Sequence record: OL631257.1
Source of the DNA: Escherichia phage ECCR664
Length of the DNA stretch: 64,000 nt
Reading direction: 5' to 3' (one strand)
Each line of letters starts with the position of its first letter. Position 1 is the first letter of the stretch. Of this stretch, positions 8,500 through 13,700 are shown piece after piece. The notes under the pieces were generated by a model, which did not search any database, was not told the origin of the DNA, and saw only the letters and a program-made list of their open reading frames with translations. The translations under genes and the position numbers were made by a program.

Positions 8500-8712
8500 T
8501 TAATTTTGGCCAGTATTTATTTTTCGCCTTTGGACGGCCTTAACATCTGTGAGGTATTTTTCCAGCTTGCGCTTGCGTGTATAATCAGCTTTAGAACCAG
8601 TTTGACGGATATCCTCATTTAAATGAGAAATAGAATGTCCTAATTCTCTTCGGATTTCATCCAATTGGGTTACAGTAAGATTACGAAGTTGTCTTTCGTT
8701 TAATTGCTGCAT
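8500..8712 (-). CDS. hypothetical protein 70 aa
   Basis: ORF. Confidence 0.4.
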
Positions 8713-8739
8713 ATATACCTCTTGGTTAGATATTAGTAT

Positions 8740-9319
8740 TTATAACAACCCTGTCAAATCATTCCAATGCTTCCGGCATAATGACACGTATCTATCAGTA
8801 TCACCAATTTCAATTTGACTGCCATCTGTAATTGGAAGTCCGTCTTCCGTGACTCTAGCTACCATTGTGGCCTTTTACCACAATGACAGACACCTTTAAG
8901 TTCAACAAGCTTATCGGCAATAGCCATTAATGCTTGAGAACCTTCAAATAGATTACCTTTAAAATCTGTTCGTAGTCCATATGCCATTACTGGCACATTG
9001 TATACGTCAACAATACGACTAAGTTGATACACCTTTTCAGTAGTTAAGAACTGAGCTTCGTCAACAAATACACAATGAATATCCTTTGTGCTGCAGCCCA
9101 TTTATAGAATTCAAAGATGTCCATGTCTTTTGTAATTATATTGGCATCCTGACGAATACCAATACGAGAGACTATTTCACCTTTTGAATCACGAGTATCA
9201 ATAGCCGGTTTAAGAACTAATACACCCATGCCACGTTCTTTATAGTTATGTGCGGCAGTAAGTAATGAAGCAGACTTACCAGCATTCATAGCGGCATATG
9301 TAAAAATTAAACTAGCCAT
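8740..9319 (-). CDS. tk: thymidine kinase (frameshifted in two places)
   Basis: [21 protein letters not shown]-loop; …VFVDEAQFL…CHCGK… as in T4 Tk; three collinear fragments. Confidence 0.9.
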
Positions 9320-9328
9320 AAGAGTCCC

Positions 9329-9511
9329 TTATAGTGAATTCACGTAGTCAATGAGTTCTTGTTCTTTCCTGTCAAATGATTCCATCAATGCGTGATATTC
9401 TTCGTCCGTCAAAGGAGCATATTCATCGTACGCATTGGTGGCTGCTTGTTCATCCAATAGGTCATGGATAAGTTCGAACAGTTTAGCTTTCTCTTCTTTA
9501 GTCAATTTCAT
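9329..9511 (-). CDS. hypothetical acidic protein 60 aa
   Basis: ORF. Confidence 0.35.
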   Translation of the reverse strand: MKLTKEEKAKLFELIHDLLDEQAATNAYDEYAPLTDEEYHALMESFDRKEQELIDYVNSL

Positions 9512-9720
9512 TTAGGTTCACCTTCTTTAACGAAATCTGGGTAAGGGTAAAATCCTGAGTAAAACCCTTCACCTTTATGATTACTACAACCTTTGTTCGA
9601 ACAGTAACACCAATAATCAAAATCACAAGCCATTTCGTCATTGCATAAAGCAAAAACTACAGGCCATTCGCATTTTTCGCATTTAGCGCCTGTAAGAATT
9701 TTTGTTTGGCTCATAACCAT
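9508..9720 (-). CDS. small Cys-rich protein (possible Zn-binding)
   Basis: CEKCEW…C…C…CYCSNKGCSNH cysteine pattern. Confidence 0.4.
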   Translation of the reverse strand: MVMSQTKILTGAKCEKCEWPVVFALCNDEMACDFDYWCYCSNKGCSNHKGEGFYSGFYPYPDFVKEGEPK

Positions 9721-9923
9721 GTCACCTTTAAGCAGTATTCTTCTACATGCTGTTTACGACCTTTCTTATCAATAAAGGTATATTCAACGAATGTTCCAAT
9801 GTAGTCTTTATCTACATCATGTGGACTATTAATTGGACATTTAGTACGACAAATGCGTTCCCATTGACGAATAATTACTGCCTTATTCTTTGGGTCGTAT
9901 GGATGTGGATAATGTATATTCAT
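9711..9923 (-). CDS. hypothetical protein ~70 aa
   Basis: ORF 9711..9938, likely start MNIHYPHPY. Confidence 0.35.
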   Translation of the reverse strand: MNIHYPHPYDPKNKAVIIRQWERICRTKCPINSPHDVDKDYIGTFVEYTFIDKKGRKQHVEEYCLKVTWL

Positions 9924-10417
9924 AATAATGGTTCCCAATCAACAATCACAATTTCTAGTTTAGTGGAATACGTATCTAAAATCTCTTCGATGATATCCCA
10001 GTTTCCGCCACCGATACCAGCACCAATTCTTGGCATATAAATTAAAGGCTTTGTTATCTTATTCTTTCCGAATTTATTTAATTCTATTATACAATTCATT
10101 AAAGCAGAGTACTCAAAATTAGGTCCAGGCTCAAACTGTGTATAAAGATTAAAGCAATAAGCTTTATGGGTCTTAAAATATTTTTCATAAACCGAATAAG
10201 TCCCGAGTTTAGATTCGTCTCCGAATTCGGTTTGAAGTTTATCGGCTTCCAGAATTTTTGGATAAGCCTTTGCTAATTGACCTGCTACACCAGCGCCCAT
10301 TGTATGAAAACAATTGCACCCATGAGCAATATTATTACCTTTAGAAAACAGGGCGACAATATCGCCCTTGATATAGTTTTTAATCACTTGCTGCAAGTCC
10401 TCTAGTATAAGAGTCAA
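9920..10417 (-). CDS. macrodomain protein, TARG1/OARD1/DarG-like (putative ADP-ribose hydrolase)
   Basis: YIKGDIVALFSKGNNIAHGCNCFHTMGAGVAGQ and MPRIGAGIGGGNWDIIEEIL resemble TARG1 motifs (…KGDLF…LAHCISEDCRMGAGIA… and MPRIGCGLDRLQW…), recalled from memory. Confidence 0.65.
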   Translation of the reverse strand: MTLILEDLQQVIKNYIKGDIVALFSKGNNIAHGCNCFHTMGAGVAGQLAKAYPKILEADKLQTEFGDESKLGTYSVYEKYFKTHKAYCFNLYTQFEPGPNFEYSALMNCIIELNKFGKNKITKPLIYMPRIGAGIGGGNWDIIEEILDTYSTKLEIVIVDWEPLL

Positions 10418-10727
10418 CTAGACGGTCCACCATAGAATTGCATGCTGCCTTATCTTTAGGTTCCGCCACCGAGCATTCTAATATTTGCCATTTTTTATAG
10501 TATCTTTTAATTAAGGTAGACGCCTTGAACCTACTAGACGCCCCATCTTTTTCTCCGTCTTTATACGCATATAACAATTTTTGTGAAAAATCTACTTTAC
10601 ACTCTTGACTTTTACCACAATAATCAGACGCCGTTCTGTTTGTATACTCCGTTACATCAGTATATGTAGTATTAGCAAGAGCGTTAAATGAAACCAAGCC
10701 AACTATTAAAGCTAACATTTTGGTCAT
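10380..10727 (-). CDS. secreted protein with signal peptide, 4 Cys
   Basis: MTKMLALIVGLVSFNALA leader. Confidence 0.45.
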   Translation of the reverse strand: MTKMLALIVGLVSFNALANTTYTDVTEYTNRTASDYCGKSQECKVDFSQKLLYAYKDGEKDGASSRFKASTLIKRYYKKWQILECSVAEPKDKAACNSMVDRLVDSYTRGLAASD

Positions 10728-11266
10728 TCTTTTATTTCCAGTAGTTTATTTGATTTAAGGTAATTAGCCTTTTCTAGGACTTCAGAAGCATATTTACTTC
10801 CAGCACTTGTCTTCCATCCCGCATTATATGAGGATATAGCTTTTCTTATATCCCCGTTATGTATATTTAACCAATAAGAAAATTCGATATAAGCCCATCT
10901 GGCTGAATTAGACCGCTTAGATAGCATTTTCTTAATTTGGGCATCAGTCATATTATAACCAAGCTGGTTAATTCTTGCCCTCATTGTTGGTAGATAGTTT
11001 TGGAACATTCCATACGCATGGTGACCTTTCTTATCTTTAAGATTAATACCTGCGGATGATTCTTGCCATAGTATTGCGGCCATTATGTATCCAAGTCCTT
11101 TCTTATGCATATTTTCATGCGTTTTAAATTTTCCGTCCTTAGAAAACTGTTCCCCAAACTGATAAGCATAATTCAAGTTATCGAGTTGGACATTACTAAA
11201 AGTATGCTCGGAGCTATGTGCTGATAACGAAAGAGCAAATAGACCAGCGAGTAGTGCTTTTCTCAT
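10724..11266 (-). CDS. secreted SLT-family lytic transglycosylase-like protein
   Basis: signal peptide MRKALLAGLFALSLSA; SLT motifs WQESSAG (catalytic E-S), GMFQ, YNAGW. Confidence 0.6.
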   Translation of the reverse strand: MRKALLAGLFALSLSAHSSEHTFSNVQLDNLNYAYQFGEQFSKDGKFKTHENMHKKGLGYIMAAILWQESSAGINLKDKKGHHAYGMFQNYLPTMRARINQLGYNMTDAQIKKMLSKRSNSARWAYIEFSYWLNIHNGDIRKAISSYNAGWKTSAGSKYASEVLEKANYLKSNKLLEIKE

Positions 11267-11274
11267 GTTTACCT

Positions 11275-11731
11275 CTAGATTTTAATCACTGCTTTAGAAG
11301 CTTTTCCTGGTAGTCGTTTACTGTTAATAATAGCCATTCTGCATTGAAGAGTCTTCATTTTGAATGCTGGATTTTCGCGACAGACTGTAAGTCCTAACCA
11401 AAGATTTCCGTCAGTTATTTCTAAACGGCCTGGGCGATATTCGACACCTTCGACAAAATCTTCATCAACATCTGGACGTGCCGGCATTGATAAAAATTCT
11501 GCAACTTCTTTAACATGATTTTTACTTTATGAAATAATTCAAAACGTAATTCTCATCTATTTCTCTCTGGATGGCACGATCTAAGAGATGTTGAGAATAC
11601 TTGATATGAAAGCCTGGTAGTCCAAGAGACTTTGCAGCATCTTTTATACCGGCATTTATTTTGCGGAACTCCGTTTCAAAGATTCGACGGAGTTTATTAC
11701 GGCGGATAAAAACGTCAGAATTGATAGTCAT
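11275..11731 (-). CDS. regB: endoribonuclease RegB (frameshifted)
   Basis: MTINSDVFIRRNKLRR…HLLDRAIQREIDE and …GVEYRPGRLEITDGNLWLG…CRMAIINS…LPGKASKAVIK match T4 RegB in two fragments. Confidence 0.85.
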
Positions 11732-11740
11732 TTTTGATTT

Positions 11741-11790
11741 CTCCTCTAGTTGACAGGTCTATAGTAACACATCTAGAGGAGAAGTAAACT
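11741..11790 (-). promoter_or_regulatory. early promoter motif with flanking inverted repeat CTCCTCTAG/CTAGAGGAG
   Basis: GTTTAC at 11784-11789 (minus); IR arms at ~11741-11749 and ~11771-11779. Confidence 0.5.
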
Positions 11791-11793
11791 ACT

Positions 11794-12009
11794 TTATTGA
11801 TAAAATGGAGTTAAAGCCCAAGATTCTTTAGATACCATATTGGCGAAATGCCTCATCTCTTCGATTTGGCGACGACGCTGGTCAGCATAGTCTTCTTCAC
11901 CTTCTTCCTTACAATCTTCAAGGTCTTCTTCAAGATACTTTAAGTATTCACTACAAATTTTGTTGACCTTTTCTTGAAAGTCCAATAACCCGGTAATAGT
12001 AGAAGCCAT
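11794..12009 (-). CDS. hypothetical acidic protein 71 aa
   Basis: ORF. Confidence 0.35.
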   Translation of the reverse strand: MASTITGLLDFQEKVNKICSEYLKYLEEDLEDCKEEGEEDYADQRRRQIEEMRHFANMVSKESWALTPFYQ

Positions 12010-12276
12010 TAGTATTTTTCCTCAGGTCGAAATACTGCACGACATGCCCACATACTGGCTTCTTTTAGATGTTGCTTAGCATACTTAAGAGCCTGCACTG
12101 CATCCATATCTTCTTTGGTTTGTTGCTCTGATTCATTTTCTTTCAAGATATATGCTTCTTCAATCAGAGCATCAAACATCAATCCAAGACGGACTTCGGC
12201 GTCTTTAATAGCGTTCACTTTACTGATTTTATCATCGGTATGCGGCTTGTAGCCTTTGATGTCTTCAATCGACATA
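12009..12276 (-). CDS. hypothetical protein (likely start MSIEDIKGYK)
   Basis: ORF 12009..12443, upstream part overlaps neighbour. Confidence 0.35.
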
Positions 12277-12489
12277 AGGAATTTCCTCATCGGTGGCAAG
12301 GTCATATTCGACCAATTGGATAGGCTCATTAATACCATATCCACGTACAGTGATATCGGTTGACGGATATTTTCCAGTAATATCACCCGTTCTAAATGCT
12401 TCAATGAATGATTGCTCGCCTGAGCAACTAAACCAGGCGGCAAAACATTTTAAAACATCTTCAGACCCTTCTATAATCAATTTAGCCAT
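12265..12489 (-). CDS. hypothetical protein 74 aa
   Basis: ORF. Confidence 0.35.
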   Translation of the reverse strand: MAKLIIEGSEDVLKCFAAWFSCSGEQSFIEAFRTGDITGKYPSTDITVRGYGINEPIQLVEYDLATDEEIPYVD

Positions 12490-12851
12490 TATAAACTCTC
12501 AGTAAAGGTACGAGCGATAACGTCGCGCTGCTGTTCCGGAGTCAGAGAGTTAAAGCGAACTGCATAACCGGATACACGAATGGTCAGCTGTGGATATTTT
12601 TCCGGATGCTTAACTGCATCTTCCAGAGTTTCACGACGCAGAACGTTAACGTTCAGGTGCTGACCACCTTCAATTTTAACTTTAGGTTGATGTTCAATTT
12701 CAATTTCACGAGCATTCAAACCGTAGAAAATTTCTGGGTCTACAATAGCGTCTTCTTTAAAAGTCTTAGAGACAATAATCCGGGCTTGAGTACCGTCTTC
12801 AAAATAAATAGTGCCTTTATGTTCACCTTCAAGAATTTGATATGCTTTCAT
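12489..12851 (-). CDS. autonomous glycyl radical cofactor (GrcA/YfiD-like; T4 Y06I-type)
   Basis: C-terminal …[25 protein letters not shown]… glycyl-radical signature, near-identical to the C-terminus of E. coli GrcA. Confidence 0.9.
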
Positions 12852-12874
12852 ATAACCTCAATTAGAAAATAAAT

Positions 12875-13165
12875 TTATCCAAGATTTTCTTTAATCAAAA
12901 ATGGGTCGGAATTAAACGCCATTAAACTTTGAGTGATTAATCCCTTAAATGGCCCATCAATAAATTCCATTTTGAAATGCGGAATACTAGTCATCAACCG
13001 TGCATTAGGAGCAGTACAAAGAACCTGCTGACCTGCGAACGGACCTTTAGTCAAACGATATCGTTTAGGTTTAAAATGGTAGATCTCGTAATTTTCTACA
13101 AGAGCCCTTTTATTGCATACTGGACTGTTATAACAATACTCAAAAACTTCAATAGTGGTCATCAT
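12875..13165 (-). CDS. hypothetical protein 96 aa
   Basis: ORF. Confidence 0.35.
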   Translation of the reverse strand: MMTTIEVFEYCYNSPVCNKRALVENYEIYHFKPKRYRLTKGPFAGQQVLCTAPNARLMTSIPHFKMEFIDGPFKGLITQSLMAFNSDPFLIKENLG

Positions 13166-13175
13166 TGCATTCCAA

Positions 13176-13700
13176 TCACAAAAATTGAGGACGAGCAGTA
13201 CCGCCTATGCAATATTTGCTTTTGCAGCAGTGCTGTACTGATTTAATATGGACATTGTAAATCTTATCCATATCAGGAGCTTTAATAGGCTCGTCAATTA
13301 TGTATAGAATACGAGAAAGCGTTAATCCACGGAATTTAGAACCTTCATTGCCAATAAAACTACGGACAGAATCAGTAAATAAACGGAATCGAATATCATC
13401 GCTAGAATAACGAGAAAATTCTTTTTAATGTTGCCAGCAGAAATTTTAGCATAAGCTGAAGTATTAGAAAGAACAATAACTGTTCCATCGTCGTGCAGCC
13501 AATTAGCAGCAAAATTAGTTACTGCAGTGGATTTACCTGATTGTCTGCCACCGTCTAAACGAAGTGTACAGTACTGCTTGAGTATGTCTTCAAATGGTGG
13601 GACATAACCATTCTTACAAATTTCTTCTACTCTAGCATCAGAATGGTGTGTAAAAGCATTCATCAGGGATAGATAAGGTCCAGTTAAAAATGTTTTCATT
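13176..13700 (-). CDS. small P-loop NTPase (terminase-like Walker A), frameshifted
   Basis: Walker A LDGGRQSGKST in ORF 13322..13747; after a -1 shift in an A/T run near 13430 the frame continues through a Walker B-like ILYIIDEP to a stop near 13176. Confidence 0.45.

Follow-up and report, generated by a model that had tools for sequence, protein, structure and literature searches.

Tk.4 (AdfM) of Escherichia phage ECCR664, a candidate anti-DarTG2 macrodomain with glutamine at the catalytic-lysine position of TARG1 and DarG

The window analysed here, a stretch of 64,000 nucleotides from Escherichia phage ECCR664 (OL631257.1), contains on its minus strand an intact open reading frame at 9920..10417, which in its maximal form encodes 165 aa from a TTG codon and whose translation includes both KGDIVALFSKGNNIAHGCNCFHTMGAGVAGQ and MPRIGAGIGGGNWDIIEEIL, the two segments quoted in an earlier, sequence-only reading of this DNA as the hallmark loops of a macrodomain (Table 1). 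Translation most likely begins at the GTG at 10387, with a product of 155 aa rather than 165, a preference based on homology with T4 and its relatives: the GTG occupies the homologous position of the T4 tk.4 ATG, which is preceded by the same GAGGA at the same distance, and 155 aa is also the annotated length in T4 and in Mosigvirus relatives. In tblastn, phage matches of under ~90% identity start at residue 11 of the 165-aa frame, and the first 10 codons of that frame are the 3' end of vs read in another frame and probably form no part of the translated macrodomain protein. The 165-aa TTG-start frame was considered as the gene and rejected, since the starts in T4 and relatives and the extents of the tblastn matches favour the GTG.

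The putative start overlaps the stop of vs by 8 nt (GTGATTAA), compared with 4 nt in T4, an arrangement that hints at coupled translation of vs and tk.4. Codons 7–13 of tk.4 contain a GC-rich hairpin of 7–8 bp (AGGGCGA-TATTG-TCGCCCT) with a T-rich run after it; the T4 sequence is identical here, and the hairpin may be a mere reflection of the conserved KGDIVAL codons. A scan of 8500..13500 for promoters and terminators found no more sites than in shuffled sequence, and for this reason no claim about transcription is made.

Table 1. Features of the tk.4 region, in positions of the 64,000-nucleotide window
Feature	Position	Strand	Description
tk	8740..9319	-	Three ORFs through two 1-nt deletions
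Cys-rich ORF	9508..9720	-	70 aa
tk.4/adfM CDS	9920..10387	-	155 aa, GTG start, most likely the biological one; stand-alone macrodomain; from ORF, homology, synteny, Pfam and AF2
P119-R-I-G-A-G-I-G126-G-G-N-W130 codons	9998..10033	-	Second ADP-ribose binding loop
N80-L-Y-T83-Q84 codons	10136..10150	-	Site of the TARG1 (K84)/DarG (K80) 'TK' catalytic motif; here Gln
M30-G-A-G-V-A-G36 codons	10280..10300	-	First ADP-ribose (phosphate) binding loop, GxG
H22-G-C-N25-C26 codons	10310..10324	-	Compare HSCNC of yeast Poa1p
Hairpin	10350..10368	-	Within tk.4 codons
vs/tk.4 overlap	10380..10387	-	8 nt
vs	10380..10727	-	
vs and vs.1	10380..11266	-	
Upstream extension of the maximal ORF	10388..10417	-	Adds 10 codons, from a TTG; lies within the 3' end of vs
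GAGGA Shine-Dalgarno-like motif	10398..10402	-	10 nt upstream of the GTG start; read from sequence
regB	11275..11733	-	Two 1-nt deletions

The gene order of the window, i.e. tk, tk.1-like, tk.2-like, tk.3, tk.4, vs, vs.1 and regB, is the same in T4 and in the Mosigvirus relative L001, and tk.4 lies between tk.3 and vs as it does in T4 and in Mosigvirus mar005P1. Between 9000 and 11500 the DNA is 98–99% identical to that of many Escherichia T-even phages, and one annotated relative, vB_Eco_mar005P1, is a Mosigvirus. The window protein is identical to T4 Tk.4 at 131 of 155 positions (85%), over the full length and with no gaps, and a protein cluster of 184 members (P0001) matches it at 97% identity. 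All motif residues are the same in the two proteins; the 24 substitutions include one in the second loop, K127 in T4 versus G127 in the window, and the T4 gene, from a Tequatrovirus, starts with ATG where the Mosigvirus gene starts with GTG. Judged by sequence and gene order, the ORF is the syntenic Mosigvirus orthologue of T4 tk.4, which is also named adfM, for anti-DarT factor macrodomain. The sequence-only reading placed it among accessory ORFs and did not recognise a core T4 gene, which the 85% identity and the synteny show to be wrong; tk.4 is a conserved T4 gene, and the A1pp (macro) domain that it encodes in T4-like genomes has been on record since 2006 (PMC1524935). The T4 RefSeq label is 'phosphatase; contains A1pp phosphatase motif', and the names 'ADP-ribose binding module' and 'macro domain protein' occur in other records. 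The literature already covers the gene, the macro fold and the anti-DarTG2 role of the T4 orthologue.

The neighbours, which had been described as small secreted and Cys-rich ORFs of unknown function, can in part be named: vs encodes the modifier of valyl-tRNA synthetase, tk.3 encodes DUF7202, and the Cys-rich ORF matches the Pfam 'Phage zinc binding domain' (Phage_zn_bind, E 4e-29). Vs and Vs.1 both have signal-peptide-like N-termini, and Vs.1 gives a weak, sub-threshold match to an SLT transglycosylase. Compared with L001, tk is broken by two 1-nt deletions in runs of T (T5 to T4 at ~8872, T4 to T3 at ~9084), and these look more like under-called homopolymers of the source assembly than like the marks of a true pseudogene. 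Two further homopolymer deletions in regB (T6 to T5 at ~11518, A5 to A4 at ~11540) are probably sequencing errors of the same kind. The genes tk.4, vs and vs.1 are without indels.

The family to which the protein belongs is widespread. Homologues were found by tblastn with the window protein in 2,799 phage records, and an exhaustive HMMER search recovered 5,252 representatives of 50%-identity clusters at E ≤ 1e-3, of which 1,550 were at E ≤ 1e-10. Purifying selection on the Tk.4 family is strong. One metagenomic protein of 1,314 aa (P0129) gave 23 separate partial matches to Tk.4 residues ~19–70, the choice being between an unusual array of tandemly repeated macro fragments and a product of faulty assembly.

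Evidence for the fold comes from several kinds of comparison, and the similarity is much greater than chance would give. The Pfam Macro profile PF01661 matches over positions 2–117 of 118 (E 2.5e-6, 27.9 bits against a cutoff of 22), phrog_335 (PHROG 335) matches at E 4.7e-66, and the PADLOC DarG model at E 2.2e-8 over the macro part only; in PADLOC and NCBIfam no models other than those for DarG were matched, and these over the macro part only. Sequence matches among PDB entries were to BT1257 (3e-11), Poa1p (1e-8), TARG1 (1e-3) and DarG (2e-3). An AlphaFold2 model built from 78 homologues has a mean pLDDT of 95.5 and a pTM of 0.91, and Foldseek against the PDB returned TARG1 4j5r first (E 3e-10), followed by Poa1p, DarG and BT1257. 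The predicted structure has the three-layer alpha/beta/alpha arrangement and the two Gly-rich ADP-ribose binding loops of a macrodomain, and its structural neighbourhood is the branch that contains TARG1, DarG, Poa1p, BT1257 and SCO6735. Profile searches and predicted structure therefore confirm the predicted protein as a macrodomain that is TARG1/DarG-like at the level of fold and clade, as had been proposed from the letters of the sequence; the human TARG1 (C6orf130) strings quoted in that proposal were also accurate, matching the sequence of PDB 2LGR.

Considering which residues of the active site are shared with TARG1 and DarG, the Tk.4 family was aligned by profile to TARG1, two DarG macrodomains and BT1257, and the columns were then read in the retrieved homologues. 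Profile-HMM alignments were relied on because MAFFT alone, run on seven sequences, misaligned the TK motif. In the first motif H22 is conserved in 117, N25 in 118 and C26 in 119 of 120 homologues, and N25 aligns with an Asn conserved in DarG and in PhiKZ AdfM, where mutation of the residue, N23, lowers activity (PMC13309987). In the first binding loop, which aligns with MGAGIA in TARG1 and MGKG in DarG, G33 is invariant; in the second loop P119, G122 and G124 never vary and W130 hardly does. The two hallmark loops named in the earlier reading are thus present and of the ADP-ribose-binding kind, but the catalytic residues of TARG1 (K84/D125) and DarG (K80) are replaced by Gln84 and Gly126. Q84 lies opposite TARG1 K84 and DarG K80 (T. 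aquaticus numbering) in the profile alignments, and Gln is found here in all 255 informative homologues (120/120 and 135/135), Lys in none; BT1257 likewise has Gln. G126 takes the position of TARG1 D125, which is Gly or Ala in the Tk.4 family and G in DarG. Altogether H22, N25, C26, N80, Y82 and Q84 are invariant or nearly so in >250 diverse homologues.

In TARG1, K84 and D125 form the catalytic pair, and a DarG K80 mutant is inactive, as summarised in a review (PMC8120803). By its predicted active site the Tk.4 protein accordingly falls outside both the DarG equivalog and the TARG1-type enzymes, and the published accounts of Tk.4/AdfM searched, in the parts available, make no mention of the Lys to Gln replacement. 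The invariant Gln at the site of the catalytic Lys means that the presumed de-ADP-ribosylation of DNA is mechanistically unproven, and, as DarG and TARG1 need a Lys there, the chemistry of Tk.4 is probably Lys-independent, e.g. water- or substrate-assisted with Asn25, His22 and Gln84.

The functional evidence comes from T4. In the HIDEN-SEQ preprint of November 2025, a T4 transposon library was screened on DarTG2-expressing E. coli and tk.4 was the single significant T4 hit on this host; a clean tk.4 knockout rendered T4 more sensitive to DarTG2. The gene mattered only with DarTG2, being dispensable on plain K-12, and was renamed adfM (bioRxiv 10.1101/2025.11.20.689424). This fits earlier work in which T4 ΔadfA ΔadfN was still resistant to DarTG2, a result that had predicted one more factor (PMC11825919). 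On enzymatic removal of ADP-ribose, the wording of the preprint is only that it 'seems likely', and the portion of the literature searched yielded no enzymology of T4-type Tk.4/AdfM. These genetics of an 85%-identical orthologue bear out the earlier suggestion that the protein counters an ADP-ribosylating defence such as DarTG, and by analogy they support an anti-DarTG2 role for the window gene, from a phenotype measured in the T4 orthologue only.

We favour, with a probability of roughly 0.7, the reading that the Tk.4 protein is an orphan antitoxin, which would bind the ADP-ribose attached to thymidine in ssDNA and presumably hydrolyse the linkage. According to this model, the host DarT2 toxin, freed during infection, would ADP-ribosylate thymidines of single-stranded phage DNA and so block replication; the two conserved Gly-rich loops of the phage macrodomain would hold the ADP-ribose, and the bond between ribose and thymine would then be hydrolysed, giving back replicable DNA. 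It would do so as an antitoxin without the DarT-binding C-terminal domain of DarG. Support for the model comes from the orthology with T4 Tk.4, the T4 genetics, the in vitro precedent of the PhiKZ macrodomain AdfM, the conserved binding loops and Asn25, and the strong purifying selection.

Against hydrolysis of this linkage stand the Gln at the position of the Lys essential to DarG, the different, DarG-type lineage of PhiKZ AdfM, and the closest relatives in sequence and structure, which are BT1257 and the Appr-1''-p phosphatase Poa1p, not DarG. The main substrates might be small ADP-ribose derivatives, with Tk.4 acting as a Poa1p-like ADP-ribose-1''-phosphate phosphatase or an O-acetyl-ADP-ribose deacetylase that clears toxic or signalling NAD-derived metabolites, and with the DarTG2 phenotype being secondary or an added activity. 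This we consider unlikely: the sole experimental phenotype concerns specifically a defence by DNA ADP-ribosyltransferase, the 'phosphatase' labels were transferred by homology, and SCO6735, a member of the same branch that is without the Lys/Asp pair, still de-ADP-ribosylates protein (PMC8120803).

The missing catalytic Lys would also fit a protein that neutralises DarTG2 by non-catalytic means, either by sequestering DarT2 or as a 'reader' of ADP-ribosylated DNA. There are precedents for both, viz. the ICP1 anti-DarT factor AdfB, which works by direct binding of the toxin (PMC11481870), and macrodomains that are pure readers (PMC9503650). However, at 155 aa, with DarG models matching 4–146 only, the protein is without a counterpart of the DarT-binding C-terminal domain; its invariant active-site-like residues are more typical of an enzyme, and a protein that only bound the DNA lesion would leave replication blocked, all of which makes a non-catalytic role quite improbable.

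The sequence-only reading had also offered a role in tuning the phage's own Alt, ModA and ModB transferases, and this part found no support. Its appeal is one of reasoning, in that T-even phages have three ADP-ribosyltransferases and an eraser would allow their ADP-ribosylation or RNAylation to be undone. The residue modified by Alt and Mod enzymes is arginine, and Arg-ADPr is typically removed by ARH/DraG-type enzymes rather than by the TARG1 clade, of which we know of no macro member that cleaves Arg-ADP-ribose bonds. A T4 gene that is dispensable on plain K-12 and needed only with DarTG2 also speaks against such an eraser, which we regard as very improbable indeed. CmdTAC, which ADP-ribosylates mRNA, was considered as a target and rejected, as T4 carrying tk.4 is still restricted by it and escapes only via alt.-3 mutations; that wild-type T4 is restricted by CmdTAC means that tk.4 does not cancel every ADP-ribosylating system.

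Returning to the preferred reading of an orphan antitoxin that reverses thymidine ADP-ribosylation, its remaining value is mechanistic, since it raises the question of a second, Lys-independent macrodomain chemistry for cleavage of thymidine-ADPr. We tentatively propose, at somewhat less than even odds, that Tk.4/AdfM and BT1257 form a distinct lineage, recognisable by H-G-C-N-C … N-x-Y-T-Q … P-x-I-G-x-G, which reverses thymidine-ADPr, and possibly other ADPr, independently of Lys. If true, T-even phages would have recruited a separate and widespread phage macro clade and not simply captured a DarG macrodomain, and the substrate range of the clade might exceed DarT2 lesions. The matter bears on how one of the commonest phage macro families works and on which ADP-ribosylating defences it cancels.

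Among known systems, DarG (DarG2; PDB 5M31, 5M3I, 7OMU) is ~20% identical to the window protein and has the catalytic Lys80, a DarT-binding C-terminal domain and darT alongside, whereas the window protein has Gln84 and is without both of the others; no darT/ART-like gene adjoins tk.4, whose neighbours are tk.3 (DUF7202) and vs. The NCBIfam DarG equivalog model NF048014 scores 29.8 bits against a cutoff of 250, with positions 4–146 of 338 matched, and membership of DarG was rejected on the absence of both the catalytic Lys and the C-terminal domain.

PhiKZ gp104, which shares the name AdfM with the T4 protein, is likewise a stand-alone phage macrodomain against DarTG2; it strips ADP-ribose from DarT2-modified ssDNA in vitro and rescues DarT2 toxicity (PMC13309987, Cell Rep 2026). 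It is a true DarG-type macrodomain with an FPTK motif, which the window protein does not have, and the similarity between the two is marginal (BLASTP E 6e-4 over 23 residues). DNA de-ADP-ribosylation is shown biochemically for PhiKZ AdfM and presumed for the T4 type; the sole biochemical demonstration thus belongs to a different macro lineage.

Human TARG1/OARD1 (PDB 4J5R/4J5S), at 24% identity, has the KGD…H…MGAG and MPRIG.G…W loops in common with the window protein, but where TARG1 carries the K84/D125 dyad the phage protein has Q84/G126, and with both the Lys and the Asp missing, membership of TARG1 was also rejected. Identity is 26–30% to BT1257 of Bacteroides (PDB 2AFC/2FG1), a protein without known function, and to yeast Poa1p (PDB 6LFQ), a eukaryotic ADP-ribose-1''-phosphate phosphatase whose H-S-C-N-C resembles the H-G-C-N-C of the window protein.
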